Part shown: positions 230-57,164 of the stretch, in pieces
Layout of the letters: each line of letters opens with the position of its first letter
Numbering within the stretch: position 1 is the stretch's first letter
Origin: a virus
IMG/VR virus record: IMGVR_UViG_3300027419_000023
Direction: 5' to 3' (one strand)
Length of the DNA stretch: 64,000 nt
Translations under genes and position numbers: made by a program
The notes under the pieces: generated by a model
The model's input: only the letters and a program-made list of their open reading frames with translations
What the model was told of the DNA's origin: nothing
Database searches by the model: none

Positions 230-263
230 TAATCAAATAAATAGGAATAGCAAATTTTACGTC
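230..263 (-). promoter_or_regulatory. Bipartite late-promoter-like motif GACGTAAAA-N13-TTTATTTGATTA
   Basis: Exact motif repeated upstream of several structural operons. Confidence 0.75.
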
Positions 264-265
264 TA

Positions 266-282
266 ACCAAAAAGTATTTAAA
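266..282 (+). promoter_or_regulatory. Archaeal BRE-TATA promoter (ACCAAAAAGTATTTAAA), back-to-back with the late motif
   Basis: Matches the recurrent CCAAAA(N)2-3-TATA consensus of this window. Confidence 0.55.
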
Positions 283-298
283 GATAAGAAAATAATTT

Positions 299-757
299 CT
301 ATTCTATTCCATCTGGAATAGGGGTGAGATAAGCCACGCTCATAGTTATAGTTCCTATCCAACGTGCTTGTTCAGTTTCCACGATAGATGTATCGATTTT
401 ATCTACATAGATTTTATAGTCGTCTGTAACCTTTTTTCGATTAACTGAAAACAAATATGATATAGCATCCACGATACTTCTGCAATGTTGATCATTATTG
501 CCATAGGATGTGACCACAGTAATCTTAATGGATACTTTCAACTCATCCCAGTCTCGAAGTTGCGTAAAGAAGTAGCTATCTCCACTTTCAGAGACGTATT
601 CGATACCAACTCTAGTATAGTGAGGTGCAATGAGTGATATTGGTTCCCGGAGTAAACCAGTATAATATCGATTGTCTGTTAGTTCGACTAACTCGGCGTC
701 TCCGTGTAGTTCATCCATAATGAACTGAGAAACCGGAGCTATATAAGACGGCATCAA
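299..757 (-). CDS. Putative tail-terminator/head-tail completion protein
   Basis: Size, beta-rich pattern and position after adaptor/closure-like genes. Confidence 0.4.
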   Translation of the reverse strand: MMPSYIAPVSQFIMDELHGDAELVELTDNRYYTGLLREPISLIAPHYTRVGIEYVSESGDSYFFTQLRDWDELKVSIKITVVTSYGNNDQHCRSIVDAISYLFSVNRKKVTDDYKIYVDKIDTSIVETEQARWIGTITMSVAYLTPIPDGIE

Positions 758-1503
758 AAAATCACATCATTCAATGATAAATGTATATTAATATTTAATA
801 TCCAATAATTTATTAATAAGTTAAACCAGTACCATCTATTGTTGCATGTTTTTATATGGCATGGAATACATAGAGGTACAAAAGACCAAGATTTACCATT
901 GCATATGTCCAATTTGTCATAATCTATATGATGAACTGCTAATTTATATTTTCTTCCAGTTGCGGTAAAATTCAATTCTTCTGGTTTACCGCAACATGCG
1001 CATGTTCTATTAAACTTGATTCTTACGTATTCTCTAAATCGATTATTAAATTTAGGACAATAAGGTTCAAAACTAATTCCACCTTTCCAAAATAATGAAT
1101 TTTCTCCACTTTTTATAATAGATTGATTCTCTCGAAATACTGGATCATTCCATATTTCTTTCGATAATGCAGAAATTCTTGCTTTATATTCTGGTGTATT
1201 TGCTCTTATTTTTGCACTAACCGATAATTTTTTACGCAATTCCGTGGATGCCTTTTTACCTTTGTTTGGTGCAGGTATTCCATACATCGGATTATTTTCT
1301 CCAGAATGTTTTTCTGACATATACTTTTTGTATTCTTCTGTATGTTTATGGCCTTTAAATGCACCAGGACAAGGAGAAGGTTTGCCTTCCATATTTTTTC
1401 GTATCCTAACTTTAGTTTCCTCGGAAACTATTCTTCCCTTTAATGATTCGGATAAATGTTTTTTATGCTCTTCTGTTTGCTTACATCCTTTTTTAACCAT
1501 CAA
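754..1503 (-). CDS. NUMOD3-repeat HNH homing endonuclease
   Basis: HTEE/SEET..K NUMOD3-like repeats, CxxC...VHHIDY...LCxxCH; overlaps both neighbours by 4 nt. Confidence 0.85.
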   Translation of the reverse strand: MMVKKGCKQTEEHKKHLSESLKGRIVSEETKVRIRKNMEGKPSPCPGAFKGHKHTEEYKKYMSEKHSGENNPMYGIPAPNKGKKASTELRKKLSVSAKIRANTPEYKARISALSKEIWNDPVFRENQSIIKSGENSLFWKGGISFEPYCPKFNNRFREYVRIKFNRTCACCGKPEELNFTATGRKYKLAVHHIDYDKLDICNGKSWSFVPLCIPCHIKTCNNRWYWFNLLINYWILNINIHLSLNDVIF

Positions 1504-2117: not shown

Positions 2118-2123
2118 TTTTAA

Positions 2124-2705: not shown

Positions 2706-2730
2706 GCAAAATTCACCACGCTTTTAAATA

Positions 2731-2764
2731 TAATCAAATAAATAAGATTGACTTATTTTACGTC
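2731..2764 (-). promoter_or_regulatory. Bipartite late-promoter-like motif (N13)
   Basis: GACGTAAAA-N13-TTTATTTGATTA. Confidence 0.75.
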
Positions 2765-2766
2765 GT

Positions 2767-2783
2767 ACCAAAAGGTATAAATA
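2767..2783 (+). promoter_or_regulatory. BRE-TATA promoter for the ATP-grasp operon
   Basis: ACCAAAAGGTATAAATA ~35 nt upstream of ATG 2818. Confidence 0.7.
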
Positions 2784-2817
2784 CGCGATAATGCTATAGT
2801 AATTTGGTGAGATATAA

Positions 2818-2997: not shown

Positions 2998-3007
2998 GGA
3001 AGATGTT

Positions 3008-11945: not shown

Positions 11946-12758
11946 TTAAGTAAATGGTTTCTGGTAGAGTTCCTTGGATGGACCTTCCAGTTGACAGTGC
12001 TGTGGTACAATAGATAGAAGTTTATAAGTCAATAAGTTATCGATCTGCCAACGAGATTTCACTAAACCATACGTTCGGATATACAAGCACCACAGGTAAA
12101 TATAGATGTTACGAGGGATGCCATTTACTTTGACTCCGTGAGAGTATTCATTTGAGGCACTTGCTGCCCAAAGTACATGATTTAGGGTAGGAACGAATAC
12201 AGCTCGGTCAGTTTCCAAGACGATGGGCTCTGGAGTAGGTATTGGATTCTCTTCGTACAGTATTTTTATGCCCGGTATAATATGAATGTCTGTAATCTGA
12301 TCGGATTCAATTCCCATGCTATTAGTCAGAGAATCTGCTCTAGTCGAGGTCCCAGAAAAACAAACACCATTTACGAAATCACAGGAAACCCCAGACCTTA
12401 ACTTCGAAAGAACAATCGCAATCATTACGTCGGTAATAACATTAGCACCTGTACGGACATTAATATCACATGGACATATACATTCCATACGGCCATCTGG
12501 TGTATTACCGGGTAAATATGTTCCATGACCAATAAAAACAATGACTATTGAATCGCCGGAATAAGCTCTTCCCACGATGTTAGCCATATAGTTTAGAATG
12601 TTAACTTTCGTGGCGTAAGTGTCTAATAATTTCGTTACCGTAAATCCTTTGGCTACTAACGTATTGGTAACATCCACGACGTCATATTTTGTGCTAGCAA
12701 TTTTATAAGGATCAGGATATCCTGTTCCAATGCCTATTACAAGTGCTAATTTTTTCAT
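11946..12758 (-). CDS. Caspase-like (peptidase C14/metacaspase) protease
   Basis: KKLALVIGI, ATKVNI, FIGHG, DGxxECICPCD, VCFSG (His-Cys dyad). Confidence 0.85.
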   Translation of the reverse strand: MKKLALVIGIGTGYPDPYKIASTKYDVVDVTNTLVAKGFTVTKLLDTYATKVNILNYMANIVGRAYSGDSIVIVFIGHGTYLPGNTPDGRMECICPCDINVRTGANVITDVMIAIVLSKLRSGVSCDFVNGVCFSGTSTRADSLTNSMGIESDQITDIHIIPGIKILYEENPIPTPEPIVLETDRAVFVPTLNHVLWAASASNEYSHGVKVNGIPRNIYIYLWCLYIRTYGLVKSRWQIDNLLTYKLLSIVPQHCQLEGPSKELYQKPFT

Positions 12759-12785
12759 ACCAGTCCAACCATGCAGCAATTAATA

Positions 12786-12820
12786 TAATCAATATAATAG
12801 GCTTTCTAAAAATTTACGTG
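12786..12820 (-). promoter_or_regulatory. Variant late-promoter-like motif (CACGTAAAT-N14-TTATATTGATTA)
   Basis: Close variant of the consensus, upstream of the caspase/membrane operon. Confidence 0.6.
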
Positions 12821-17735: not shown

Positions 17736-18665
17736 CTAAGAAGCCTTGGTGTTAATTTCTACAAACGCCTCAGGACTATGGATTTCAATTGGGCAAACCC
17801 ATTCCTTGACCTCAACCCAGAAGTTTCCACCCTTCTCCTTGGGATAGTCGTCAGCCACGTCGATTTCCTGGCTTACAACGAATTCAGCTGCCTGTGGACT
17901 GTAAGGTATCACGTAAGCGTAGCCAGTTGGAGTGAACTGAGACTCGATCATCCAACTGCGATCTGCTTCACCCTTTCCAAAGAGTTTGCCAATATAGTCG
18001 GCAAATGGAACTCTCTCGGAGTCAGTCTTATAGAGGTTATACATGGTTGCCCTATCAGCTACTAGTCCCCAGGGCTTGAACCTCGGGTCCATAAACTTGA
18101 TAGCATTAACTATGTCTTCGTACGGATCAAGGGTATCGCCGCTAGAGTCCCATGGACCCATATTTACGACATCATTGCCGGTTGCAGTGTCGCTAGTATT
18201 AAGTACCTTTCCACGAGTATTGACATGAGCTACATCTACGATACCATTGATACCGAGAGAACTATCGCCATTAATCGCAGTGTAATCCTCAGTAGCATGG
18301 ATCTTGGCCATGACTTCGTTGATCTCTGCGGTCTTCATGACTGGGCCTTGAGTCTTAGCTAGGTCTCTCTCGTTAATATAGAAACCAGTACCAATCTGAT
18401 ACATTTCGTGTTTTTCTACGCCAGCTGCGATCTGGATTGGGTCTGGGCTAGCACCTTTGGCAACTATTCCAGCTCTACCAGAAGTTGTCTGGATATGAGT
18501 AATCGCGTCAATATCGATCTGGGTTCCGACATCCCTATAGGGTAGAATATTCCTTGCGATAAGTTCTGGTCTGTAATTCAGCTCGTAATCGTTAATGGTT
18601 TGTACCCAAGCTGTAACTACTTCCTCGGGAATAAACGAACCGTAATGTAAAGTTGTGTCTGCCAT
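17736..18665 (-). CDS. Major capsid protein (HK97 fold, encapsulin/linocin-like)
   Basis: 309 aa; LIARNILP, EDYTAINGD..LGINGI, PIEIHSPEAFVEI; follows protease and decoration genes. Confidence 0.85.
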   Translation of the reverse strand: MADTTLHYGSFIPEEVVTAWVQTINDYELNYRPELIARNILPYRDVGTQIDIDAITHIQTTSGRAGIVAKGASPDPIQIAAGVEKHEMYQIGTGFYINERDLAKTQGPVMKTAEINEVMAKIHATEDYTAINGDSSLGINGIVDVAHVNTRGKVLNTSDTATGNDVVNMGPWDSSGDTLDPYEDIVNAIKFMDPRFKPWGLVADRATMYNLYKTDSERVPFADYIGKLFGKGEADRSWMIESQFTPTGYAYVIPYSPQAAEFVVSQEIDVADDYPKEKGGNFWVEVKEWVCPIEIHSPEAFVEINTKAS

Positions 18666-19445: not shown

Positions 19446-19478
19446 TAATCAAATAAATAAGAAAAGAGATTTTACGTC
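19446..19478 (-). promoter_or_regulatory. Bipartite late-promoter-like motif (N12) for the decoration/capsid operon
   Basis: GACGTAAAA-N12-TTTATTTGATTA. Confidence 0.78.
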
Positions 19479-19486: not shown

Positions 19487-22411
19487 CTAGTGCGATCTCT
19501 TGCCAAACATATCTTTTTGGCTCTTCTTTAGCATGTCGCGTGCGGACTGAAGCGAAGCCGCATTATCTCCTTCGGCAGCAGGCTGTCCCCTCGCGTTCAT
19601 CTTAGGTAGCTCTGCTTTCAGGATGCCAGGGTTTGCATCGAAATAAGCCCAGCCAGCTGCTTTAAAGCCATCGTAGTGAGTTTGGGCTTCGGTTCTTGCC
19701 TTAGCATTCAGTTTCAGAGAGAAAGCCTCGAAATCTGCAGCAGCCTTCTTTTCGATAAGTTCCTGTTCCGCGGCATTCTGTTTCTGGACAAGGTCCTCGA
19801 CTTGCGCGGTCAGTTCGGCGATCTTAGTGTCCCTTTCATTGAGCTTCTGTTCAAAAGCCTCGTTCATCTTCTGTACGTCTAAGTCAGCTTCAATATATGT
19901 GTTCGTCATATTATTACCATGTGTATCGATATATCGTGAATCCATTTTTTCAGTAGGTTCTTCTTCCATTTCAGAAGTTTCCTCTTCGGTTTTTACGGGA
20001 CATTTCTTGTTCTTCATTTCGAAAAACATACATTCATTACCATCGGCATCTTTAGTCATGCCTTTTTTTGTCTCATTAAGTTTTGTCATGTTATTATTAC
20101 CTGTAAGTGTTTTAAAATTAGAATTATTATATTTATCTTTCATATTGGATGGTATTAGTCCAGACTTAACATACGTTTTGGACCAATTAATTGCGTCTTG
20201 CTCACTTTCAATATGCTTGTAGACGTTAGTTATAGTCGGATTACTACCAATACGAATAGCATTTAATTTAATAGTGAAACTATCATTTTCCTGAATTACT
20301 TCAGCACGTCGCTTATCATTATAAAAGACTTTAGGTTCATAGCCGTGTTCGTTTAGCATGAAACCGCAACCGTCTTTCGTACTACAAGCTCCAATACCAT
20401 TAGCTAACTCAGCAAAGTGATAAAAGTGATAACCACCGTCTTCAATTGCGTTATACTTGGTACCGTTGAGGTCACCCGACGTCATGCTCGTATGCGTAGT
20501 ATATGCAATAGAACCATCATACGGAGTACCTGACTTAATACGGGTCATGTCTTCGGGTGTCAACTTATCCTTATAATAACGCGCGACGGCTACAACGTCT
20601 TTCTTGTCTGGTCTTGCCGTAACATTCATAAGTTTACCGATGCGATTGTGCTTATAGGTTACGAGTTCTGTTGGTGCAGTATGACCTTTCAAAATTGGTT
20701 GACCTTCAAGCCAGTGTGCATCTTTCCCGAAGTACTCAAACTTTTTGAGTGTAGGAATACCGTCCGTTCCAGTGAACACTCCTTCGCGCATAGGTACAAC
20801 AGGCACGTCAATTACTTGATCGTCTTCATAGATGATCTTAGAACCAGCCGGAGATGAATTCATTTTGATTTCATCTGACGCAACTATGTCTAATCCGCCT
20901 GGAGAATGTTCATCTTCAAGAAAAGTTTCGTTACGTTTCATTCTTCTACTTTTAGACTTATTATAATCTGTCTTATATGGGTTATTAGAAACACTGAATA
21001 ACTTTTTTGAAACAGATTTGTCCCAATGCTTTAATTCAGAATCATCTGCATCATGAATAGGCTCCCGACTTGAAACTTCTTCAACTTCACCAGACTTCTT
21101 GACAGCAAATAACCCACTAGCAAACTGATGTAATTGATCACCTGGTTCTAACCTAATCTTTTCTAATTTATCAGACATTATATTAGCATTACCATAATAT
21201 GCATTAGACGGTTTTTTCTCGCCCGTTTTTGTCCATACTGATATAGGACTTTTAATATCAACTGATATCAATTGATTTGGTCTAGTTTTTAAGCCTCTGG
21301 ATAAATCTATCTTTACATTATTATCACGAGTAAATGATGTATCGGTCCACTTTACATCAGAACCCTTTTTACTCGTACTTCCGCCGCATGACCCTGGGCC
21401 AGTGCCTGACTTTTCAGAATCAGGACAGTTAGCGTTTTCTTTATAAGCTTCCATATGGCGTTCGGTGAAATCCATTTGATCTTCAGTCAGTGGCATTCCT
21501 TCGCGATTCTTAATAAAAATAATTTTCTTTTGGATGTTCCGATTAGCAACGCCCGTTTGATTACCAGAAGCCAAATCCCAGGAATGATCAAGTGCCTTAT
21601 GACAGTAGTGAGGTCCACCGTTGACTATAGCTCCAACCGGATATCTATAGGAATTTGAGTCTTGGCCACTACCAGCATCCACATCCAGATACCACTTCAT
21701 AAGGGACCGTTTGGAAACTTTTCCGGATTCGTCAGTTGCCCAACTCATCATGTCGGATTTGGCAGCTACAGGATCCCAAGGCATTTGATGCTCTTCTGGC
21801 TCTATGAGTTCCCCAGACTCTTCATCCTCGGATTCCATAGGTTCCTCGTCGTAATCCTCGGAAACACCTTCCGGTTCAGAACTCTCCATGAAGGTTTCAT
21901 CGTCTGGATGTTCCTCAACCTCGCTAATGGAAACTTCCGAGTCTATTGTACTTTCCAGAAGTTCAGGTAAATCTTGCTGACGAACGTTACCGAAGAGTTT
22001 ATCAGGTACTTTGTCTATTGGAACTTGCTCTGGAATGACGTCACCTTTCCGGGTAACAATGTTACCATCTAATTTCATTTCTTTAGAGCTGGTAGTATTA
22101 TCATTTCCCAAAGTAAGATCACTACCATTCGTAAATCCTGAAGCATCTTCTTTGACCTCAGAATCCTGTTCTTTCTTAGCCATCTCTAGTTCTATTGGTT
22201 TTTCATTGTGTTCTTTTAGCCATTTCTTAACGGCTTTAGGCGTCCATTTTTCCTTTGAGAAGTGATAACTCTGGGTTGACGTTTTCTCTTCATCTCCCTC
22301 TTTTTTTACTCCCAATAACATCTGTATTCCGTCGCCAAGATCCTTAGTCACTATCCGGTCATATTGACCTGGATCCGAGATCCTAGCGGCGTGATACTCC
22401 TTGAAGGGTAT
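19487..22411 (-). CDS. Prohead protease/scaffold polyprotein with an inserted tagged domain; probable ATA start
   Basis: VVPMREGV, PILKGH, SIAY, HFAEL..GIGACSxxDGCG protease; C-terminal coiled coil; frame extends 20 codons above the GTG to ATA with GGAG RBS. Confidence 0.8.
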   Translation of the reverse strand: MPFKEYHAARISDPGQYDRIVTKDLGDGIQMLLGVKKEGDEEKTSTQSYHFSKEKWTPKAVKKWLKEHNEKPIELEMAKKEQDSEVKEDASGFTNGSDLTLGNDNTTSSKEMKLDGNIVTRKGDVIPEQVPIDKVPDKLFGNVRQQDLPELLESTIDSEVSISEVEEHPDDETFMESSEPEGVSEDYDEEPMESEDEESGELIEPEEHQMPWDPVAAKSDMMSWATDESGKVSKRSLMKWYLDVDAGSGQDSNSYRYPVGAIVNGGPHYCHKALDHSWDLASGNQTGVANRNIQKKIIFIKNREGMPLTEDQMDFTERHMEAYKENANCPDSEKSGTGPGSCGGSTSKKGSDVKWTDTSFTRDNNVKIDLSRGLKTRPNQLISVDIKSPISVWTKTGEKKPSNAYYGNANIMSDKLEKIRLEPGDQLHQFASGLFAVKKSGEVEEVSSREPIHDADDSELKHWDKSVSKKLFSVSNNPYKTDYNKSKSRRMKRNETFLEDEHSPGGLDIVASDEIKMNSSPAGSKIIYEDDQVIDVPVVPMREGVFTGTDGIPTLKKFEYFGKDAHWLEGQPILKGHTAPTELVTYKHNRIGKLMNVTARPDKKDVVAVARYYKDKLTPEDMTRIKSGTPYDGSIAYTTHTSMTSGDLNGTKYNAIEDGGYHFYHFAELANGIGACSTKDGCGFMLNEHGYEPKVFYNDKRRAEVIQENDSFTIKLNAIRIGSNPTITNVYKHIESEQDAINWSKTYVKSGLIPSNMKDKYNNSNFKTLTGNNNMTKLNETKKGMTKDADGNECMFFEMKNKKCPVKTEEETSEMEEEPTEKMDSRYIDTHGNNMTNTYIEADLDVQKMNEAFEQKLNERDTKIAELTAQVEDLVQKQNAAEQELIEKKAAADFEAFSLKLNAKARTEAQTHYDGFKAAGWAYFDANPGILKAELPKMNARGQPAAEGDNAASLQSARDMLKKSQKDMFGKRSH
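21380..21427. repeat. 48-bp perfect direct repeat, copy 1 (CPDSEKSGTGPGSCGG)
   Basis: Identical to 23487-23534. Confidence 0.95.
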
Positions 22412-22459
22412 AATAATCAGCTCCTGGATAAATAATGAGATATTGTCAATACATTATAG

Positions 22460-22549
22460 TAATCAAATAAACGAATGGAATGGTAATTTTACGTCTACAT
22501 ACCTAAATATATATAATCATAATAAAATAGATATGATGGATTTTACGGC
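22460..22549 (-). promoter_or_regulatory. Tandem late-promoter-like motifs (exact 22460-22495, variant 22514-22549)
   Basis: GACGTAAAA-N15-TTTATTTGATTA plus GCCGTAAAA-N14-TTTATTATGATTA. Confidence 0.7.
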
Positions 22550-23667: not shown

Positions 23668-23784
23668 ATGAAGAGATTCCTATACTCCGAAATGAAGCAT
23701 GGACGTACCCTCAAGCACGTTGCTACCAAAAACGGAGTTGACATCAAGCTCTGTCGGAAAGCCCTAAAAGAAATAGAGGGTTAA
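23668..23784 (+). CDS. Possible 38-aa HTH-like microprotein
   Basis: GRTLKHVATKNGVDIKLCRKAL; BRE-TATA-like site near 23609. Confidence 0.35.
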   Translation: MKRFLYSEMKHGRTLKHVATKNGVDIKLCRKALKEIEG

Positions 23785-23951
23785 GCCTTCTCGTTCTTTT
23801 TTCTCTGCTTTCTACCCTTTTTGAGCACGACTTGTCCTTCCGGCACGTCTATGATTACTTGCTCTTTTGGCTCCTCAACTTTCACAACTATCTGTCCTTC
23901 AGGTTCATCAACTGCTATGTATTCCCAGTTACCTTTATTTTGTTTCCACAT
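23781..23951 (-). CDS. 56-aa hypothetical late protein (not in ORF track)
   Basis: MWKQNKGNWEYIAVDEPEGQ...; directly downstream of a late motif. Confidence 0.6.
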   Translation of the reverse strand: MWKQNKGNWEYIAVDEPEGQIVVKVEEPKEQVIIDVPEGQVVLKKGRKQRKKNEKA

Positions 23952-23990: not shown

Positions 23991-24044
23991 TAATCAAATA
24001 AATAGTATACCGCGTATTTTACGTCGGACCAAAAAGTATAAATA
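23991..24044. promoter_or_regulatory. Late motif (minus, 23991-24025) back-to-back with BRE-TATA (plus, 24028-24044)
   Basis: Same geometry as at 230, 2731 and 34231. Confidence 0.75.
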
Positions 24045-24066: not shown

Positions 24067-24402
24067 ATGAAGAAAACGCCTGTTTGCTACGATCTAAAAG
24101 ACATCGATCTTGAAGATGAAACCAACAACATACTCCTTAATATGTCAGGTGGTCTTTTGCCTGAGCATCTAACGTCAGATGAAATAAAGTTACTTGAACA
24201 ACGTTTCGGCGGAGATTGGTTCCATGAATTAGGATACGAAGAAAAGGATGGTTATAAAAATCCAGAAATCGATCTCATTGTTAGAATAACCAAAGAAAAA
24301 CAATTATTTGAAGGTTCCTGCGATGACTGGTATTGGTTTAGTTCATCTGCTATAGATGAATTAATAGCAGAAGTAAACAGATTAAGATTACTAATAAAAT
24401 AA
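24067..24402 (+). CDS. Hypothetical protein
   Basis: Start moved to ATG 24067, just after the TATA promoter. Confidence 0.55.
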   Translation: MKKTPVCYDLKDIDLEDETNNILLNMSGGLLPEHLTSDEIKLLEQRFGGDWFHELGYEEKDGYKNPEIDLIVRITKEKQLFEGSCDDWYWFSSSAIDELIAEVNRLRLLIK

Positions 24403-29292: not shown

Positions 29293-30512
29293 TATACTAC
29301 CTCAGTATTACCGATAGAATTAATATCAAATTCTACGTTTTCATTAATATATGATTCCATTTTTATTATATCATCAAGTCTTATAATTCTAAGTGTTTCC
29401 GTAGGATATTTTTCAAGAAAAGAATTTATTTTATATTTTGAATAATCGTCCATCCAACCTTTAACTTCCCACCAGATATTATAATTTTTTATATAAAAAT
29501 CCGGATGATATAAATGATTATCAATATTAAAGGACTCTGGTTCGTATTCCCAATCAAGATTTAATGAGTCTAAAACTTTAGCAATTCTCACTTCATATGA
29601 CGATCTTAAGTATATCTTTTCTCCTTTTTTAGAAACGAACCAACATCCATTTCCTCTACTATGCATAGGATGGTTTTTATATATACCATCTAACCAATGT
29701 TGAAAAGCTATATCAGATAGTTTTTTATGTTGTTCTTCTGAATGCATTATATCAAGCATTCGTTCACGATTTTCAGGTATGCTCCAGAACTCTTTACTTT
29801 TTTCAGATATCAGTTGTTTTGTTTCTGGTGATCTAGATTTCCCATATATAGGATTATCAGGACCAGTTAACACACCACTACGATTTTTGGACATCAATTC
29901 TAATGATTCCTTAGTATGTTTTTTACCGTAGAACGGATTCTTTTCTCCGACATATCGGCCTTTCATACTAATGGAAAGTTTTAATTTTTGTTCATCAGAC
30001 ATCGGCTTTCCGTAGTTTGGATGGTTTTCTCCAGACATTATTTCTGTAAAATTTCTCTTATTTTCCAACGATTGATGGGTACCATATGATGGATTATATA
30101 TTCCCATTACGGCTTCTGAATGATCTCTAATAGGAATTTCAAATCGTTTTAACCAATTTCGAATCATTAAATCATCACATGATGCGATATCAGCAATTTT
30201 TTGCATGGACTTATGTTGAGTGATATATTGATCTTCTAGCCATTCTTTGTTCGTATATATTTTTCCATCATGTTTCTTAAGCCATGCTTTTGAAATTTTT
30301 TCCTTTGCCTCGACGGAGATTTTACAACCTTTTCTTGATCTTCCATCAATACCAGCCAACCTCATATATCTTGAAACCGTATCATAACTAACATTAAGGT
30401 TGTTAGCTATAGTAATAATATCTTTTTTCAAAATTACATATTCATTATATAACCAATCTTTATTATTAAGAAGTTGTTTAATATTAGTTGGTATACGAAC
30501 CATGAAAATCAC
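29292..30512 (-). CDS. NUMOD3-repeat PD-(D/E)xK homing-type endonuclease
   Basis: GExNPxYGK repeats; RSSYE, YEP, PDFYI, EVKG. Confidence 0.8.
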   Translation of the reverse strand: MIFMVRIPTNIKQLLNNKDWLYNEYVILKKDIITIANNLNVSYDTVSRYMRLAGIDGRSRKGCKISVEAKEKISKAWLKKHDGKIYTNKEWLEDQYITQHKSMQKIADIASCDDLMIRNWLKRFEIPIRDHSEAVMGIYNPSYGTHQSLENKRNFTEIMSGENHPNYGKPMSDEQKLKLSISMKGRYVGEKNPFYGKKHTKESLELMSKNRSGVLTGPDNPIYGKSRSPETKQLISEKSKEFWSIPENRERMLDIMHSEEQHKKLSDIAFQHWLDGIYKNHPMHSRGNGCWFVSKKGEKIYLRSSYEVRIAKVLDSLNLDWEYEPESFNIDNHLYHPDFYIKNYNIWWEVKGWMDDYSKYKINSFLEKYPTETLRIIRLDDIIKMESYINENVEFDINSIGNTEVV

Positions 30513-30571: not shown

Positions 30572-30901
30572 CTATTCTTTTTTATCAAAGTATTTAGTCT
30601 TTTTTAGTGTTTTCATGACTTCGGGCTCTATGCTTTTCAGGATAGTTTCGAGCTGCCGATCAAGGTCCTTAGTAGTTGAGAAGCTATCTAGGGTCATGTT
30701 TTGTTTAGGGGATTCTTCGTTTTCATCAGAATTAGATATGTTTCCCCAATTTTCGAATATAACATTATCATCTTTATCGTATTCGATTATGCGAACCTGA
30801 GTTGCCGTATCCTTTTCCGTTTCGTTATTATTTTCATCTATATATACTATATCTGCCCTAATCCCGCCGTTAGGTGTTTTACTGTCAATATGTTCTATCA
30901 T
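30572..30901 (-). CDS. Hypothetical protein
   Basis: TPNGG...IIEYD; coupled to the upstream peptidase gene. Confidence 0.6.
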   Translation of the reverse strand: MIEHIDSKTPNGGIRADIVYIDENNNETEKDTATQVRIIEYDKDDNVIFENWGNISNSDENEESPKQNMTLDSFSTTKDLDRQLETILKSIEPEVMKTLKKTKYFDKKE

Positions 30902-32559
30902 TTAGATTTCCTAGACTTTTTGTCAGCATTTATTCTAGCTTGCATCGATGACGGCTTGTCCCGGTTCAATGGTAATCCACTATTATAGTGCTTGTCGAGA
31001 ATATCATATCTATTAGGATAAGAGACTTTCATTAAATCTGGTTGATTTATGAACATCTCTACTGAATCTGCATAATCTTCGTGATTACTCTTGTGCAATT
31101 TAGCATAATCTGTTATAAATCCTTTTTTATCGTTTTTCATTGCAGAATTCCATTCTGTTCCGTCACTATAATAATCCCATCCTACATTATCGTCAGTATG
31201 GCCAGATTCGTGTGCTATTAGTTGAGTAGTCAATTTCTTCTTTTCACTACTAGAAGAATACAAATTTATGTTATCATCACCTGCGGATCCAGCAGACTTA
31301 AAGTTCACGTTCAACTTGTTAGACCAATATTCGTCATCTTTACTTTTACCATCTACGATATTAATACGTGATACGTTACTTCTAAGGGTATCGGGCATTA
31401 ATGACAGAATTCCATATACTTCTTTTACGTCGTATACTTGATTTTTTGGATTGTCAGGACTATAAATGACAACACCATCATCAAATTCATGGATAGTTGC
31501 TTTGATTTTATTTTTACCATTTATTATATAATCTTTCTTTTCTGAAGATACTACATGAGCATCATATGCAGTATTAATAATTTCTTCTTTTATGTTTGAC
31601 AACTCTTCCCTGTTATTTTGCATTTCGGAATATGCTAGAGATATTTCTTTTTGTTTATTATTTATTAATTTAGTATCCTCTGCATCATAGGACTTACTTA
31701 TTTTACCGGCATCTTTTAGTATCTTTGACAATTCTTCTTTTTTATAAGTTTCTGTTAGCCCATTCGAAGTTATTGTTATGTCATTTTTGCTAACTGAATC
31801 AATATAAATATCGCCTATACTTTCAGAATTCCATGTTTCTCCTGATGCCATAGAACTTACAGAATTATCAAACGATTTATTTTTATATTTTTCTTTTGCA
31901 GAGGTCTTTATCTCCATTAATTCTGAGCCTAGTGTATCAAGTTTTTTACGATCATTTACCTTTTGTGAAATTTCATTGTATTGTATTTTTAGATTTTTAA
32001 ATTTTTCAACTTTACTATTAGGTTGTATTTTCTTGCCGTTTATGTCTAATCCTTTCTTACGTAATGCATCTCTAGCCATATTTGCTAGTAGTTCGTTTTC
32101 AGGTGACGTATCATTAGCCGCTTTTACCATATTTGAGGTTGTAGCATCTAATTCGTCTCTGGGAATATTATTAGAATCTTTTATATTATTACTTTTAGTT
32201 GTTTTTAATTTATCAACAGCCAGTCGTAATTCTTTATAGGTTTCCTTGCTAACTTTACCGGATGCTAACTCGGATTTAGCTTTGTCAATTAATGATCGAA
32301 CATCCTTTACGTTTTCTAATAGTATTGGATCCTTGATTTTGGCAATCCGTTTTTCTGCTTTACTAGAAACTTTTTCGGCTCTTTTACCACGTCTTTCGTC
32401 AACTCCTTTTTGTTTTTCGGCCTTAAGTTTTTGTTCGGTTTCGAAATTCTTTTTAGCTTCTTCCTTGTTCTTACCACAACTGAAACCTTCTCCATATTTA
32501 TCTTTTGGGCACTTATAGTTTAACTTTTGATAAAATGGAATAATATCCTCGTATCTCAT
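30898..32559 (-). CDS. Tagged coiled-coil protein with C-terminal zincin-like peptidase
   Basis: N-terminal KLNYKCPKDKYGEGFSCG; HESGH...TDYA...EDYAD...YPNR. Confidence 0.78.
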   Translation of the reverse strand: MRYEDIIPFYQKLNYKCPKDKYGEGFSCGKNKEEAKKNFETEQKLKAEKQKGVDERRGKRAEKVSSKAEKRIAKIKDPILLENVKDVRSLIDKAKSELASGKVSKETYKELRLAVDKLKTTKSNNIKDSNNIPRDELDATTSNMVKAANDTSPENELLANMARDALRKKGLDINGKKIQPNSKVEKFKNLKIQYNEISQKVNDRKKLDTLGSELMEIKTSAKEKYKNKSFDNSVSSMASGETWNSESIGDIYIDSVSKNDITITSNGLTETYKKEELSKILKDAGKISKSYDAEDTKLINNKQKEISLAYSEMQNNREELSNIKEEIINTAYDAHVVSSEKKDYIINGKNKIKATIHEFDDGVVIYSPDNPKNQVYDVKEVYGILSLMPDTLRSNVSRINIVDGKSKDDEYWSNKLNVNFKSAGSAGDDNINLYSSSSEKKKLTTQLIAHESGHTDDNVGWDYYSDGTEWNSAMKNDKKGFITDYAKLHKSNHEDYADSVEMFINQPDLMKVSYPNRYDILDKHYNSGLPLNRDKPSSMQARINADKKSRKSK

Positions 32560-34230: not shown

Positions 34231-34283
34231 TAATCAAATAAATGGTATGTGCTAGTTTTACGTCTAACCAAAAAGTATTTAAC
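34231..34283. promoter_or_regulatory. Late motif for the portal operon (minus, 34231-34264) back-to-back with BRE-TATA (plus, 34267-34283)
   Basis: GACGTAAAA-N13-TTTATTTGATTA; ACCAAAAAGTATTTAAC. Confidence 0.78.
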
Positions 34284-45006: not shown

Positions 45007-47610
45007 CTAACCTTCCCAGCCACCTCCCAACCGTATAGCTTTTTTGGGTAACTTGGGCAACACAAAATTACTTCTATTATTTAAATAAAAGATTGCTTGG
45101 GTGAGAGCGTCGACTTGATCGTCGTGACGAGACGTGGGGAACGCTGCCAGCTCTTCGAGTAGGTCATGAAGCCAGGGAGCATTTTTGGGTTGAGGTAGCC
45201 ACACGTTACCGGACTCTATGTACGGTGTGATGGCTTGGGCTCTAACTACTTTGCCGCCCTGGGGTTCAATTGGAATGAGGCCTGGTAGCTCTCTCTTAAG
45301 CATTGTGATGACTGCAGGACCGTTTGCCTTATCTTCTATTAGTTTAGCGGTGACTCTCGGCCACTTAGCAGAAAGTGTCCTAATATTCTGCATGGTTGTT
45401 ATAATATCCATGCGGTCACGTTTCTGGTCTAGCAAATAGAAATCTCCACCTTTACGACCCCAGATTTGAATTACAACGTAGTCGGTACCGTCGGTTTCCT
45501 TGAACGTGCAATCCGCTGATAGCACTACTATATCCATATGATTTTGAAGGCTTAATGGTTCCGCTGGATAGAATTGGTTTCTGTTGGGAGGCACTGCTAT
45601 CGGATCTCCCCACCAACCCCTATTAAAGATGGTGCCTCCTGGAGGACTTGGTCTCTGTTGGTATAGGGACGACCAGGTATAAGTTCCCGCGGATATCTTA
45701 GTGGCTTCGATATCTTCCAAGGAACCGTACCGCCATGACCACAAACATTCTCCAATTTGTCGTGGGTCCTCTAGCTCTAACGGATCCTCGGCAATCATTG
45801 GAAATTTCAGGACGGTCCATTGCTCTGCCTTCGGATTAGATGCCGCAAGTGACAGTAGTCGACCTGCCAAGTCATCTGCGTGCCAACGAGTCAGCGTAAT
45901 TAATATCCGGGCATCTTGATTAAGTCGTCTGGTATAAAAATCGTTTACATACCAATTATACGTTGTATTTCGGATAGTAATGGATTCTGCGTCTTGTCGA
46001 CCTCGCAACGGATCATCTATGATACCATAGAAAAATCTCTTGCCAGTGATAGATCCGCCGACTCCCGCGCACTTATAGTAGCCTTTGTGGCCAACTATCT
46101 CGAAGTTTCCTCGGTTACGAGAAGCTGTACTGCCAACTAAACTGTTCCGGCCATTCCTACTGCTCAGGGAGACTTCTGGGAATACCTCTCGGTAGGCATC
46201 ACTGTCCATGATGCGTTGCACGTCGATATTCATGTCTTCGACTAGAGATGCTGCATAGGACGTAGCCATTATACCTACGTTCGGATTCTTGCCGAATATC
46301 CATGCGGGCAGACGCCGAGAAACCAGTTCACTGTTATGTACAACGATATCATTTGCAGTAAATGTATGATCATTCTCTATTTCTATACATCTACATTTAT
46401 GTTTGCCTACTGGAATTATACTTACAATTCTATCAGCATCATACCTATTATCAACAAATCTATTTGCTTTTACATTCCAATTAGAAAGTTTATTTTTCTT
46501 TGATCCTATTAACCTAATATACTTTTTAAACAGGTAAGAATTTGTCGCATCGGATATATTCAATGACCAAGATATATATGGTTTGCCTTTATATTTGCTA
46601 TTTTTTTGTCTTAATGTAGTTGATATTCCTAGGCGTAACATCAAACTTTGTATGGATCTCAATAAATCTCTACTAACAGAATAAAGCATTATCGTACAAT
46701 TGTTTCTATCACTATTCTTTAATCCTATATATCCATCACATGAAAAATACGACCCTATAAAAGCGGCAATTTGTTCATTTGTGCCTTTATATATCCATTC
46801 AGGTATTCGTTTCGTATATGACGTACCTACAAGACCTTTATTTCGTAGCCATTGTTTAATGCCGCCAATCACATCATACCTATATTTACCATGAGGTGAC
46901 TTATACCATTTAAATCCTAATTTTTCGATATGTTTCGTAAAATCTTTTATAATAATTTGATCGGCATTTGTAAAATTGCTAGAGTTTGATCCTTGATTAT
47001 TGGAGTTAGTTGATCCGTCACCAATAAAGTAACCAGCGATTATAAATTCATCTAATGTATTTGTTGCCGCTGGCTGTATTTTTTGATTAGTTGATATTGC
47101 TAAATAGTCTCCCAATTCAAGTTCTGATGCATTTTTCCATCCATCTGATGTTAGAAATGTATGGTCATATGCTGTTATACATTTTCTACCGTGATATGTT
47201 GATATTTCAAGGCATTCTAATTCGCCTTGATCATATATCTCTTTAACGACATCCGGTTCTCCATTTCCATTTATTACAACATCATTTATTTGTATATCAC
47301 CTAATTTTTTATATATGCCGTTATACATTAATACGGGTGTATCTATTGATAACGGTTTACCTGAACCTGGCGGCATAAATATCATTAGGCGCTTTAGATC
47401 TCCAAATGCCCATCTCTCCAAATAATCACATATGATTTTATGGTGCCAGTTCGTGTTGTAATCCGGAGAAGTGTACTGCGTAAAGTCTAGTAAGTGTTTG
47501 CGAGCCTTGGCTTTCGCTAGAGCACGTTTGCCGCGTTCTTTATTCAAAAGCAATGGAGATGGACTGCCATCCGGATTTGTTAGGGAAGACTTTAATATTG
47601 GTAAGGACAT
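45007..47610 (-). CDS. terL: Terminase large subunit (intein-containing)
   Basis: PPGSGK|SE Walker A, IIDDP, TRWHxDD, LYQQRP, IEDKANG, HDDQVDA. Confidence 0.95.
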   Translation of the reverse strand: MSLPILKSSLTNPDGSPSPLLLNKERGKRALAKAKARKHLLDFTQYTSPDYNTNWHHKIICDYLERWAFGDLKRLMIFMPPGSGKPLSIDTPVLMYNGIYKKLGDIQINDVVINGNGEPDVVKEIYDQGELECLEISTYHGRKCITAYDHTFLTSDGWKNASELELGDYLAISTNQKIQPAATNTLDEFIIAGYFIGDGSTNSNNQGSNSSNFTNADQIIIKDFTKHIEKLGFKWYKSPHGKYRYDVIGGIKQWLRNKGLVGTSYTKRIPEWIYKGTNEQIAAFIGSYFSCDGYIGLKNSDRNNCTIMLYSVSRDLLRSIQSLMLRLGISTTLRQKNSKYKGKPYISWSLNISDATNSYLFKKYIRLIGSKKNKLSNWNVKANRFVDNRYDADRIVSIIPVGKHKCRCIEIENDHTFTANDIVVHNSELVSRRLPAWIFGKNPNVGIMATSYAASLVEDMNIDVQRIMDSDAYREVFPEVSLSSRNGRNSLVGSTASRNRGNFEIVGHKGYYKCAGVGGSITGKRFFYGIIDDPLRGRQDAESITIRNTTYNWYVNDFYTRRLNQDARILITLTRWHADDLAGRLLSLAASNPKAEQWTVLKFPMIAEDPLELEDPRQIGECLWSWRYGSLEDIEATKISAGTYTWSSLYQQRPSPPGGTIFNRGWWGDPIAVPPNRNQFYPAEPLSLQNHMDIVVLSADCTFKETDGTDYVVIQIWGRKGGDFYLLDQKRDRMDIITTMQNIRTLSAKWPRVTAKLIEDKANGPAVITMLKRELPGLIPIEPQGGKVVRAQAITPYIESGNVWLPQPKNAPWLHDLLEELAAFPTSRHDDQVDALTQAIFYLNNRSNFVLPKLPKKAIRLGGGWEG
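46333..47355 (-). mobile_element. 341-aa intein with LAGLIDADG endonuclease in the TerL Walker A
   Basis: Starts PLSIDTPV, ends VVHN|S; AGYFIGDG and IGSYFSCDG motifs; more AT-rich than the exteins. Confidence 0.92.
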
Positions 47611-47655
47611 AATAACGACCAAAATGTTTAAATATAAAACAACTAATAACTACTT

Positions 47656-47982
47656 ATGAAACACGTTATTCCAGAAGGAAAGGCAGTAGAAAAATTGAAT
47701 GGTAATACGATTTCTACGAAGCATATAGATATTAATAAAATAGTAGTGGTTACCCGACGCACGATATATAAAACAGACGAACTTTTCATGCTGGTCCAGA
47801 CCGCTGAATTGCCTGGAAAATGGCATTTGGCTAGTTTAACCCATTCAGTAAATCACTTATATCACAGGAATGCATCTACTCCCTTTGAGATACTTGACGA
47901 AATTACCTACAAAGATGACCACATATATCAATTCGAAGATCCGTCTGAGTTTGTTCAGTGGTTATCCAAGAATATAAGTTAA
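47656..47982 (+). CDS. Hypothetical protein, possibly distant family B
   Basis: Own BRE-TATA promoter at 47618-47634; IYQFEDPSEF. Confidence 0.55.
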   Translation: MKHVIPEGKAVEKLNGNTISTKHIDINKIVVVTRRTIYKTDELFMLVQTAELPGKWHLASLTHSVNHLYHRNASTPFEILDEITYKDDHIYQFEDPSEFVQWLSKNIS

Positions 47983-52214: not shown

Positions 52215-52269
52215 TGATTAAACCTCCCTGGATTTAAGTACTTTATAGTACTATTTATACCTTTTGGAA

Positions 52270-52343
52270 TGCTAATGCCTGGATTCGAACCAGGGACCCT
52301 TTCCGAATGCGTACTCAGTACCATGCCGCTAGATTACATTAGC
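52270..52343 (-). tRNA. tRNA-like gene with non-canonical anticodon arm (T-ACG in loop; pseudo-tRNA?)
   Basis: 7-bp GCTAATG/CATTAGC acceptor and perfect CCTGG-TTCGAAT-CCAGG T-arm; anticodon loop is 6 or 8 nt. Confidence 0.6.
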
Positions 52344-52613
52344 AGAATTTTGTGCGTACTCGTTTAACCTGTTGTACCCGTACAACGAGCGCCTCGAACT
52401 CCGGCAGGTTCAATAGATCGTAGGTAGCGCCTTTCTACTTACTAATGACAGGAATTATTTACTTCACTAAAGTTTCCTTCTTGACCTTAGTGAAGTGCTC
52501 AACTGCAATACGTTTTATAATGGGTTCCGTGCCTTTGATCACATGTGGTGCTAAGCACCTGGTTCTGTCTGGTTCGATCTCTGGCCACATTACGTTACAA
52601 CCTATAGGTGTAA

Positions 52614-52686
52614 AGCCACGAGTCGGATTTGAACCGACAACCTGGCGATTACTGGTCGCCTGCACTTCCAATTGTGCTTCCGTGGC
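52614..52686 (-). tRNA. tRNA-Thr(AGT)
   Basis: GCCACGG acceptor, GCAC/GTGC D-arm, GGCGA-CCAGTAA-TCGCC, GTCGG-TTCAAAT-CCGAC, U73. Confidence 0.82.
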
Positions 52687-54690: not shown

Positions 54691-54708
54691 TGTTAATTAT
54701 CTCCGTAT

Positions 54709-55248
54709 TTATACCTTTTGGTCGTTGTCTTCCATCGTAGCAAGGAACTTTTCGTACGCTTTGATCTGGTCATCTGTCCACGTATCCATTAGGGCCACGT
54801 CTGGGTCCACGCTTGATTCTACACGAACCGTCTGTATGGGAGGCCTTAGCGCAAGATAGTTCTTACTTAATTGGTCATAGAGTTTGACGTACTTCTCATG
54901 CCAATGTTTGTTTCGGCTACCGTCATCTCCGACTTCCAGGACAAATTCATTGCTAGTTCCGTCTAGAATGTCTTCGATACGTTCCAATTCTTTTTCGTAG
55001 CGAGCTAAAATCTTAGGTGCGTATCCAGATACCCTCTCAGCTATTGTCTGGCTAAGATGAGCATCTGCAGTTCTGGTAGCCTCTTCTGCGTGTTGTCTTG
55101 CTTTTCTAACATGTTCCCATATTCCTACTTCTGAAACATCCACACCAAATTTTTCATGTAGTATCTTTTTTAATTCCGGAGTAGAAAGAGAACAATTATC
55201 AAGAATATATTTTTTTGCTTCCGGTGTTATTACATACGGTGTTGCCAT
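54709..55248 (-). CDS. Putative terminase small subunit
   Basis: N-terminal HTH-like segment, long helices, acidic C-terminus; downstream of an internal late motif. Confidence 0.45.
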   Translation of the reverse strand: MATPYVITPEAKKYILDNCSLSTPELKKILHEKFGVDVSEVGIWEHVRKARQHAEEATRTADAHLSQTIAERVSGYAPKILARYEKELERIEDILDGTSNEFVLEVGDDGSRNKHWHEKYVKLYDQLSKNYLALRPPIQTVRVESSVDPDVALMDTWTDDQIKAYEKFLATMEDNDQKV

Positions 55249-55249
55249 A

Positions 55250-55735
55250 TCAAACCTTTCTTAAATCCCGTGCAGTACGCTTCCAGATTTTTTTACCGCC
55301 TTCGGTAGAATATTCCATTTCGTATCCGTCTTTCATCATAGTCGGTAGACCTGTTTCTGGATTAATACGTTCTCTAGGAGCATTTCCGATTGTCTTATAT
55401 AATTCATCATGACGTTTAATTATGTCGTCGATTTGTTTTCCGCTATTTAATCTATCCATGGCAAGTTTAGCAAAATCTTTATCCCGGAAGGCATATTTTT
55501 TACCATTTGCGGAAGTGACTACAAATCTATTACGGCCTTCCTGTTCTGTCATGACGGACTTGTTAGAATCAGCTACTTTTTCCTGTGATTGTCCTTCATC
55601 AGATGATTTACCTCCACAACTACCAGGTCCAGTTCCGTTTTGTTCTTCTGCTTTACACCGATAATTCATCTTTATGTCGTCAGATTCAGTAAGGTATAAA
55701 GGTCCGGTTGTTTTTTTACTAATAATATATTTCAT
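55250..55735 (-). CDS. Tagged small protein (putative virion cargo)
   Basis: IKMNYRCKAEEQNGTGPGSCGG. Confidence 0.7.
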   Translation of the reverse strand: MKYIISKKTTGPLYLTESDDIKMNYRCKAEEQNGTGPGSCGGKSSDEGQSQEKVADSNKSVMTEQEGRNRFVVTSANGKKYAFRDKDFAKLAMDRLNSGKQIDDIIKRHDELYKTIGNAPRERINPETGLPTMMKDGYEMEYSTEGGKKIWKRTARDLRKV

Positions 55736-56087
55736 AATTCCTCATAGTAATGATAATGCGTTTAATAATTGTAATTCCAGATGGCGACTTTGGGTCTCCC
55801 TACATTTCTGGATAAGCCGGTTTGCCAGCTTGACCAAGTATCTTGGATTACTTCTATTATATTTAACGTTGGCAATTAATTCTGTTAGGACAGCCACCCT
55901 AGTTTCCAAATCAAAACTAACCGAATGTTCGTAGGGCTCATCGATAACGATATTCTTGTATTCTCGGATAGGATTCAGTTCAGGAATTTCATCTAGCTCT
56001 AGCCAGAATCTTGCTTCGTCATCCAAAATATTCAGGTCCACGAAACGCTCAATGGACGTTAAAATAAGTTCTTCCATGGAATATTGG

Positions 56088-56594
56088 TCACCCGTAGCTC
56101 ATTACACTAACGTCTTTTGGTACGGTAACTGTATTCTTTTCAGCATCTTCTTTGGCTCTAGCTTCCTGAGCTTTCTGCACGACATAATCGATCGTAGACC
56201 GTTTGATTGAGGAGAAGGTTTCCAGAGACATTTCTGGTTGCAGGTCTACAATTACCACATCCGGACTAGTAATGGTGCCCTGACTGTTGTATTCCTTGCC
56301 AGTTTTTGCATCAACTTCGTGTAGGAAAAAGTCTATTCCTGCAAACGAATTTGGTTTTACATCAGTAGCAAAATATTTTTGGCCGCCGGAAAACAAAATA
56401 TATCGAGCTGGTGATTCAGTTTGAGGAACATTCTCAGACTCCTCGCAATCCGGACATTCGCATTCCGGCTGGCTTTCTGACATAGCATCCAGGAAATCGT
56501 CAATGAATGCATTGAAACGTTCGTCGAGTTCCTTGAGTAATCCTTCCCGGAATTCAGCTAGATCTTCCTTAGTAACGATAATATCTTCAGTCAT
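56088..56594 (-). CDS. Acidic hypothetical protein
   Basis: GAGGT RBS; CECPDC. Confidence 0.6.
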   Translation of the reverse strand: MTEDIIVTKEDLAEFREGLLKELDERFNAFIDDFLDAMSESQPECECPDCEESENVPQTESPARYILFSGGQKYFATDVKPNSFAGIDFFLHEVDAKTGKEYNSQGTITSPDVVIVDLQPEMSLETFSSIKRSTIDYVVQKAQEARAKEDAEKNTVTVPKDVSVMSYG

Positions 56595-57164
56595 TTAACC
56601 TCTCTTTGAATTCTTTGAATACGCACGTGTATAATAATAATCTACAGCACCTTCGTCTATATCTTCCCAGTACTGACGGTAAATATTTGACGCGAAACTA
56701 TATTTATTACTGTATTTCCTAGTTGAATACTCTAAGTTTCTTTCAAGCGTAATAGCTGGAATATCTATTATTAGGAAGCATACAGTACATACAAGATCGC
56801 CGTGGTCATCGTACCGTAATAATCCGCCGCACTGGTCACAGAACAGCCTCTTTTCTTGGTTCCAGTCTTCGCAGCAACCTACCCGACTACTATAGCTATC
56901 AGGCGGTTTACTAAATTTTGCTTGGCTGTGCCGATCTATTACATATCGTTGCTTCTCTTCCAGTGTATCGAATAAAATAATTTGTTTATTAATCAATATA
57001 AAGGGCTGCTGGGGAGATTTTACGTCTCCGTGAGCATTATATTGCTTTTGCTTCTTGATATAACATTCCTTACAATACGTGTGGAGATGACTATATGTGT
57101 CGTCCCGGTAATAAGCATTTTGCGAATTCAATAGTTTTCCGCATTTTCGGCACGTCGAGAACAT
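56595..57164 (-). CDS. Double zinc-finger protein with TFB/TFIIB-type zinc ribbon
   Basis: CRKC..CKEC at the N-terminus; CDQCGG.LRYDD.GDLVCTVC.LII. Confidence 0.65.
   Translation of the reverse strand: MFSTCRKCGKLLNSQNAYYRDDTYSHLHTYCKECYIKKQKQYNAHGDVKSPQQPFILINKQIILFDTLEEKQRYVIDRHSQAKFSKPPDSYSSRVGCCEDWNQEKRLFCDQCGGLLRYDDHGDLVCTVCFLIIDIPAITLERNLEYSTRKYSNKYSFASNIYRQYWEDIDEGAVDYYYTRAYSKNSKRG
56990..57026 (-). promoter_or_regulatory. Late-promoter-like motif inside the TFB-ribbon gene
   Basis: GACGTAAAA-N15-TTTATATTGATTA. Confidence 0.6.

Follow-up and report, generated by a model that had tools for sequence, protein, structure and literature searches.

Reviews describe archaeal viruses as relying on canonical promoters with a B recognition element (BRE) and a TATA box, together with small regulators. 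Here, we analyzed an element of different composition in a 64,000-nucleotide stretch of viral DNA (IMG/VR record IMGVR_UViG_3300027419_000023; hereafter, the window refers to this whole stretch). The element consists of a first box, GACGTAAAA, and a second box, TTTATTTGATTA, separated by a short spacer; it heads particle-building operons and is very probably a promoter. The closest known case is that of the intergenic repeats of HF2 (class I and II; Haloferacalesvirus), conserved blocks that include the TATA box and the start site, keep their position across the genus, give rise to a late transcript of 35 kb, and work in reporter plasmids without infection (PMC8707807). As in HF2, the two-box element belongs to an archaeal tailed virus, forms virus-specific blocks at operon heads only, is conserved in sequence and position across relatives, and would include the start site as predicted here; furthermore, the long morphogenesis transcript of HF2 is driven by one of its repeat classes, and both systems show compact bidirectional arrangements. 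However, the HF2 repeats have a TATA box at -26 and a BRE, whereas the two-box element has CGTAAAA in the TATA slot and no sense-oriented BRE. In addition, its spacer is unconserved and variable, canonical promoters coexist with it in the same genome, and the two systems share no sequence similarity and differ in host lineage and genome composition.

More distant parallels are found in several other viruses. The late promoters of beta- and gammaherpesviruses carry a TATT box that is read by a viral protein resembling the TATA-binding protein (TBP) within a viral pre-initiation complex (PMC6541308, PMC8360532). There, too, a non-canonical element occupies the TATA slot of structural-gene promoters beside canonical TATA promoters, and the host polymerase is Pol II-like; however, these are eukaryotic viruses with a known viral TBP mimic, whereas no TBP-like gene was found in the sequence examined here, so that the analogy is one of mechanism only. 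SIRV1 and SIRV2 have a virus-specific GTC element downstream of TATA, as well as the regulators Sta1, SvtR, AvtR, and F55 (PMC5569661, PMC1635249). Extra virus-specific cis elements at archaeal virus promoters, and gene-specific regulators that set timing, are the point of likeness, but in these crenarchaeal viruses the canonical BRE/TATA is kept and the extra element is a short add-on. The archaeal virus ANMV-1 (KP703175; locus L069, 2966-3559) encodes a TBP (PF00352, E=1.3e-12), its gene being located two genes upstream of that for the terminase (PMC4372165). The wider virus group can hence carry its own general transcription factor, although the two-box motif is missing from ANMV-1 and no TBP gene was found in the examined sequence of the motif-bearing family. 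The late promoters of bacteriophage T4, TATAAATA, are read by gp55 and gp33 together with the sliding clamp and represent a single box at -10 in a bacterial sigma-replacement system. They likewise constitute a class of short, virus-specific promoters that serve particle genes and do without the host's upstream element; in contrast, the element described here has two boxes and an archaeal setting, and no gp55-like gene was identified. To our knowledge, archaeal viruses carry no RNA polymerase, the ordering of gene expression in large archaeal tailed viruses is almost unknown, and separately controlled promoter classes have barely been studied. The novelty of the present case lies in a second, BRE-less promoter architecture whose use follows gene function and which a whole family shares; two sharply different architectures per genome, kept across environmental relatives, provide a testable handle on expression order.

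Scanning the window for the pattern GACGTAAAA-N10-18-TTTATTTGATTA returned six exact matches with spacers of N13-15, all on the minus strand, at 230, 2731, 19446, 22460, 23991, and 34231, in agreement with a preliminary description of this DNA. The same pattern was absent from 100 dinucleotide-preserving shuffles (0 expected by chance versus six observed). While GACGTAAAA alone occurs 8 times in the window versus 0.8 expected, exact occurrences of TTTATTTGATTA are confined to the six sites. The three variants that had been proposed at 12786, 22514, and 56990 were also recovered (12786-12820, 22514-22549, and 56990-57026, minus strand). The exact copies are all intergenic and upstream of genes, and the sole exception to this placement is the copy embedded in a coding sequence at 56990, which is itself conserved.

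Several of these sites head genes whose products are recognizable. The copy at 34231-34264 (-) precedes the operon for the portal and a MuF-ADP-ribosyltransferase fusion, which extends from 34199 to about 24533. At 22460-22495 (-), an exact copy forms the proximal member of a tandem pair that heads a 954-aa protease/scaffold-like gene, the distal member being a degenerate variant (GCCGTAAAA ... TTATTATGATTA; 22514-22549, -) located 54 bp upstream. Only 8 nt past the stop codon of the 954-aa gene, the copy at 19446-19478 (-) heads a 232-aa gene, the major capsid gene (17736-18665), and later genes. Another degenerate variant (CACGTAAAT ... TATATTGATTA; 12786-12820, -) lies ahead of a caspase-like gene (11946-12779) and the small genes after it, and it has a weak counterpart before the caspase orthologue in the related locus L002. 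Three further sites are exact copies: 2731-2764 (-) heads an operon of four ORFs running from 2705 to 299, including a NUMOD3 endonuclease; 23991-24025 (-) heads a 56-aa gene (23781-23951); and 230-263 (-), with box 1 at 263-255 and box 2 at 241-230, heads a 63-aa gene (35-226, MTRLID...). The ATG of the latter begins 3 nt past box 2, exactly as described before. The variant at 56990-57026 (-), which combines GACGTAAAA with TTTATATTGATTA, lies in frame inside a Zn-finger open reading frame (ORF; 56595-57164).

The element is not restricted to this virus. While the exact 9+12 motif yielded 0 matches in IMG/VR, the core pattern CGTAAAA-N12-18-TTATTTGATTA was found at 62 loci. About 27 of these, from roughly 18 contigs with up to 9 copies per contig, belong to true relatives of the window as judged by tblastn; the other approximately 35 are unrelated single matches, consistent with chance in this database. 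Protein identity to the relatives is typically about 50%, with the capsid protein reaching 86-93%. Scanning beyond the window covered G001 and G002 (both in full sequence), G003-G005 (as whole records), and the L079 locus. In a set of 33 non-redundant instances, the boxes are separated by 13-18 nt (mode 14-16). The two bases ahead of CGTAAAA differ by lineage (GA in the window, AA in L001, GT or TT in L002, and also AT), whereas CGTAAAA itself is invariant. The motif had been called virus-specific, a term that has to give way to one covering a whole family of related viruses, with the leading GA as a lineage-specific trait. Moderate conservation extends to the A that precedes and the T that follows box 1, as well as to TA(A/T)TA past GATTA, while the spacer sequence is not conserved. 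In about 432 kb of sequence from the window and its relatives, each of the 31 non-redundant exact copies of box 2 has CGTAAAA 13-18 nt upstream (31/31). Since no box 2 occurs without a box 1 upstream, the two boxes form one unit.

Moreover, the positions of the element are conserved, with orthologous placements found in three to five genomes per site. The motif before the portal gene is shared by the window, L040, and L013, that before the 56-aa gene by the window, L001, and L067, and that before 2124-2705 by the window, L006, and L007. The protease/scaffold gene is preceded by a tandem pair, with members 50-56 bp apart, in the window, L001, L002, and L067, and the same four carry the motif before the 232-aa gene that precedes the capsid gene. 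The MTRLID gene has it in the window, L006, L014, and L036. An alignment of the capsid-operon site from four genomes shows both boxes to be invariant, while the spacer and leader contain substitutions and an indel of roughly 15 nt; we read this pattern as a phylogenetic footprint. The two-box motif is absent from the distant archaeal viruses ANMV-1 and vir525, which were scanned for it. One of the relatives, L067 (NZ_JAQVBV010000061.1), is a 17-kb contig with four two-box copies and a capsid protein 93% identical to that of the window, filed in a metagenome-assembled genome (MAG) labelled Bacteroides sp. Very likely, an archaeal virus contig has been misbinned here, and the assignment was not taken as host evidence.

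The second promoter type that had been reported for the accessory genes of the window proved to be real. These promoters, hereafter called class 1 as opposed to the two-box class 2, follow the pattern CCAAAA-NN-(8-bp A/T box, TWTWWATA form) and occupy about 19 intergenic sites. An SD sequence (Shine-Dalgarno sequence) or a leaderless ATG is located 21-24 nt past the TATA 8-mer in 10 of the approximately 19 cases, most commonly at exactly 22 nt, and near-exact 22-nt examples are those at 2768, 9101, 23610, 37299, 24029, and 57877. Four cases are leaderless, and an SD never begins before position 20 after the TATA box. Judged by this spacing, the class-1 geometry corresponds to that of an archaeal BRE-TATA-start arrangement with minimal leaders, in which messages appear to begin right at the SD or the start codon. 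The variety of the 8-mers fits recognition by TBP better than a bacterial -10 box or a T4 late promoter. The class-1 distances supply an internal ruler for these genomes, with 22-23 nt from the end of the TATA box to the start.

The two classes are distributed by gene function. The window encodes a portal-like protein, the MuF-ADP-ribosyltransferase fusion, a major capsid protein, a tail protein, a caspase-like protease, and an intein-bearing large terminase (TerL), and every operon with recognizable virion genes, TerL excepted, begins with a two-box element. Class-1 promoters serve the accessory cassettes inserted among the virion operons as well as the region from about 36 to 64 kb. The operon labels previously assigned held for portal, MuF, capsid, tail protein, and caspase, which profiles or homology support, while the labels "neck" and "TerS-like" found no support. 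In a 97.5-kb relative available in full sequence, all class-2 sites (9/9) lie within 42-83 kb and on the strand of the particle genes; its first 42 kb harbor 0 of 9 class-2 sites versus 16 of 27 class-1 sites (Fisher's exact p=0.002). Similarly, a 20.5-kb non-structural stretch of an 81%-identical relative contains eight class-1 sites on the gene strand, and its only class-2 site is the embedded one. As far as these data reach, the scatter of copies away from structural genes that the preliminary description had named as counterevidence was not seen. The proposal of a distinct strand-specific, promoter-like element at the head of particle-building operons, with BRE/TATA for accessory and replication genes, is supported by this partition together with the conservation. 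The motif, its strand and position, the obligatory coupling of its boxes, its orthologous conservation, and its restriction to the particle-gene half are direct observations. As a practical consequence, the motif can mark particle-gene operons and inserted accessory cassettes in contigs of this family that otherwise resist annotation.

That the element acts as a promoter is indicated by its surroundings. At four sites (34231, 2731, 23991, and 230), the upstream neighbors lie on the opposite strand and are transcribed away from the operon, so that a promoter is required there, and the two-box element is the only conserved sequence available for this role. In particular, the 34231 element is the sole conserved sequence between the portal operon and the oppositely oriented genes upstream of it.

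The position of the transcription start can be estimated from the downstream genes. An SD begins 9-15 nt past GATTA in 12 of 20 scorable instances. The N-terminus of the 63-aa protein (MTRLID or MVRLID) is conserved among orthologues, and in L006, L014, and L036 the motif is kept with leaders of 21-26 nt that contain an SD. The ATG located 3 nt past GATTA at site 230, taken together with the SDs at 9-15 nt, places the start at or within a few nucleotides of GATTA; given such a start, box 2 cannot be a TATA box at -26. We consider it likely that transcription begins inside box 2. The start would fall on either G or A in TTT-GA-TTA, at a pyrimidine-purine step such as also occurs (T|G and T|A) at class-1 starts, and the predicted starts in the window are 234/233, 2735/2734, 19450/19449, 22464/22463, 23995/23994, and 34235/34234. 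Box 2 (TTATTTGATTA) would accordingly span about -6 to +5 and comprise the melted region and the initiator. Measured from this side, the distance between the end of xCGTAAAA and the G of TTTGATTA is 19-23 bp (mode 21-22), compared with a class-1 ruler of 21-24 bp, a match in which the class-2 start is inferred and only the TAAAAT run is A/T. The suggestion that GACGTAAAA sits roughly where a TATA box would be expected is supported by the genome's own TATA-to-start distance, whereas the attribute "TATA-less" was overstated, as box 1 keeps a TAAAAT run in that slot. A sense-oriented BRE (CCAAAA) was not found upstream of box 1, where there is instead coding sequence or the inverted CCAAAA of a divergent promoter. 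Besides its A/T run, box 1 has a CG that never varies, and the 11-mer of box 2, likewise invariant, is absent from canonical promoters.

Taken together, these findings can be read as a second promoter class of an archaeal tailed-virus family, which heads the particle-building operons, is perhaps separately timed, and uses a contact beyond those of TBP and TFB (transcription factor B); for this reading as a whole, we regard the chances as even. The two-box element would head the genes for portal/MuF, protease-scaffold, and capsid, the neck-region genes, and the caspase cassette, while BRE/TATA would drive everything else. The absence of a BRE, the invariant CG, and the invariant 11-mer over the melted region and start suggest a sequence-specific contact beyond that of TBP and TFB with BRE/TATA. 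Such a contact could be made by a virus-encoded factor or by an alternative host paralogue of TBP or TFB and would result in a separately timed, late class. Separate temporal control of the two-box operons appears somewhat more likely than not, while a dedicated viral factor is possible but somewhat doubtful.

Several observations weigh against this explanation. Box 1 still holds TAAAAT, so that host TBP and TFB alone might suffice. TerL, usually a late gene, is not located behind a two-box motif. The HF2 class I and II repeats are equally conserved and nevertheless active in reporter plasmids without the virus (PMC8707807). Searches with PF00352 (TBP) and PF00382 (TFIIB cyclin) gave no match at E<=1 in five relatives (284 kb, fragments <=69% complete), and no TBP or TFIIB-cyclin Pfam match was obtained among the about 58 window ORFs scanned. 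Pfam and PHROGs returned nothing useful for most small window ORFs, which leaves most genes downstream of the motif without an assigned function. Finally, the four runs labelled RNA-Seq in which the sequence occurs are represented by Logan contigs flagged "probably DNA", which hold no information on start, strand, or level.

The main rival is accordingly an ordinary promoter read by host TBP and TFB, in which the part of a weak TATA box is taken by CGTAAAAT and that of a strong initiator by TTTGATTA, without any extra factor, and in which the conservation reflects selection for a fixed high strength or the spread of promoter cassettes, as in the HF2 repeats. The A/T run of box 1 at the right distance, the HF2 precedent, and the lack of a viral TBP or TFB among the window ORFs scanned and in the five relatives are in its favor. 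However, neither the CG of box 1 nor any of the 11 box 2 positions varies at about 50% protein identity, and we know of no TBP or initiator that demands such strict conservation. In addition, a sense BRE is missing, whereas every canonical promoter of the same genomes has CCAAAA, and the two classes are split strictly by gene function. We therefore consider the ordinary promoter unlikely, although it is a serious competitor to a dedicated second class.

A tblastn search with the TBP of ANMV-1 against the motif-bearing family was negative, and the PCNA_N profile had no match in the five relatives. It is a tentative possibility that these viruses of roughly 135 kb switch the host RNA polymerase to their particle genes by means of a specificity factor of their own that is homologous to neither TBP nor TFB. 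Such a factor would recognize CGTAAAA and/or TTATTTGATTA, replacing the contact between BRE and TFB, and might be the conserved two-Zn-finger protein P0001 (56595-57164, -) that contains the embedded motif copy. If true, this would provide the first description of a sigma-like or late-factor-like promoter switch in an archaeal virus.

P0001 is encoded behind a class-1 promoter (57296) and directly upstream of a class-2 unit. The evidence on its nature makes it a candidate regulator only: a profile scan gave sub-threshold Zn_Ribbon_TF hints, the look-alikes Zn_Ribbon_TF and Pox_VLTF3 in the Atlas (scores of 0.81-0.84) are leads only, and an AlphaFold model built from 8 sequences is too poor for reading the fold (pLDDT, the predicted local distance difference test score, of 44). 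The motif copy within its gene is better defined. The 56990 variant lies in frame and uses the same codons in four lineages (window plus L079, L052, L044, and L082), with GTA-AAA and TTG-ATT-AAT identical in all of them. Under the codon usage of the window, the chance of identical synonymous choices amounts to 0.01 for one lineage and to about 1e-4 for two further independent lineages, which indicates that the DNA signal itself is under selection. The embedded copy probably serves the genes located between 56594 and about 54709 as an internal promoter.

A different assignment of the boxes would make box 2 (TTTATTTG or GATTATAA) the real TATA box, with a start about 22 nt downstream, and box 1 a site for an activator or repressor. 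Box 2 and its flank (GATTATAWTA) are indeed A/T-rich and TATA-like, and binding sites immediately upstream of BRE/TATA are known for archaeal activators such as Ptr2 (PMC5569661). However, the conserved start codon at site 230 is only 3 nt past box 2, and in the 12 of 20 instances with an SD 9-15 nt past box 2, the SD would lie ahead of the predicted start, while class-1 SDs never occur before position 20. Furthermore, the leader indels are located downstream of GATTATAAT. These arguments render this assignment highly improbable.

Marginally less probable still is the notion that the window derives from a bacteriophage with a sigma-type promoter, with CGTAAA as the -35 and TATTTG as the -10 box for a phage-encoded or alternative sigma factor. 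Arithmetically, the spacing of 15-20 bp between CGTAAA and TATTTG (mode 17-18) fits, site 230 would be leaderless with a start 7 nt past TATTTG, and L067 is filed in a MAG labelled Bacteroides sp. Yet TATTTG lacks the conserved T at -7, and the class-1 BRE-TATA promoters, with SD or ATG at 21-24 nt and four leaderless cases, are unlike bacterial geometry. The genes also have strong SDs, which Bacteroidota generally lack. Capsid and portal homologues among 50,697 phage records were found exclusively in archaeal viruses, one of which encodes a TBP (PMC4372165): the capsid protein of ANMV-1 is 37% identical to that of the window, and the portal is 28-30% identical in two viruses with recorded hosts among the Methanosarcinales and Methanomicrobiales. 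The order of protease-like gene, gene of about 230 aa, and capsid gene is also that of ANMV-1. The two-box motif can help to recognize contigs of the family as archaeal. A signal that acts in the RNA of the 5' leader (in processing, stability, or the control of translation) would suit the strand specificity, the position just upstream of SDs, and the 19446 and 22460 copies inside co-directional gene runs that could be transcribed from upstream, but it is the least credible alternative, in view of the four sites with no co-directional transcription unit upstream, the lack of a shared fold (z-scores of -0.5 to +1.3 and a different structure per site), and a spacer that varies from 13 to 18 nt without covarying sequence.

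Beyond the two-box element itself, the arrangement of the class-1 promoters deserves description. At four sites in the window, a divergent class-1 promoter on the plus strand stands back to back with the two-box element at a gap of 2-3 nt. At 2768-2783 (+), abutting the 2731 site, an SD starts 22 nt past the TATA box; at 24029-24044 (+), abutting the 23991 site, an ATG follows after 22 nt, pointing to a leaderless message; and at 34268-34283 (+), abutting the 34231 site, the ATG follows after 23 nt. The fourth, a perfect CCAAAA-NN-TATA at 267-282 (+), is 3 nt from box 1 of the 230 site and has no ORF behind it. It points antisense into the gene 299-757, and 27 bases there are identical between the sites at 230 and 34231. 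Its product may be an antisense RNA, or it may be left over from the duplication of a promoter module. A fixed 2-nt abutment to the divergent promoter holds for this genome only, since the gap in relatives ranges from 3 to 18 nt, and this variability implies that the abutment is not part of the mechanism.

In a strain contig from another sample, position 24033 is joined to 24402 with 3 other letters between them, and the plus-strand gene 24067-24402 is absent. Cut out between two class-1 promoters, this gene would represent a promoter-bounded accessory cassette. The spacer of the 23991 motif shows 1-nt differences in other strains. The sequence is present in runs from groundwater, wastewater, sediment, and bioreactor metagenomes, and the G+C content of the window genome is 36-38%.

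The TerL gene has an upstream region of its own type (47600-47660). Its ATG (47610) is located 21 nt past TTTTATAT, within an A/T block common to this gene and the divergent class-1 promoter at 47619 (+), which has an ATG of its own about 21 nt past its TATA box. The block looks like a bidirectional TATA box that gives rise to two leaderless messages. A ninth GACGTAAAA, at 31423-31431 (-), lies inside the ORF 30898-32559; 13 nt further on comes TTCTGTCATTA, a sequence that differs from box 2 at 3 positions (31395-31431). This occurrence is probably due to chance, as it lies in coding sequence and lacks a good second box; alternatively, the endonuclease gene that follows could have a weak internal promoter here.

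Upstream of its GTG start, the reading frame of the 954-aa protease/scaffold-like gene stays open (22351-22423, -). It probably starts at a CTG (22423-22421) directly after AGGAG; the aligned start codon is CTG in L067, ATG in L001, and GTG in L002, and the CTG may be a non-canonical start codon. A tRNA gene with the anticodon AGT (Thr) was identified at 52614-52686 (-; Rfam, 54.7 bits). A threonine tRNA with A34 is unusual for archaea. A second tRNA-like call by ARAGORN (52269-52344, -) has an odd anticodon loop and no Rfam match. Lastly, NUMOD3-bearing endonuclease-like ORFs (754-1503 and 29292-30512, -) lie inside particle-gene operons, and TerL contains a LAGLIDADG intein, which indicates that the structural module is heavily colonized by selfish elements.

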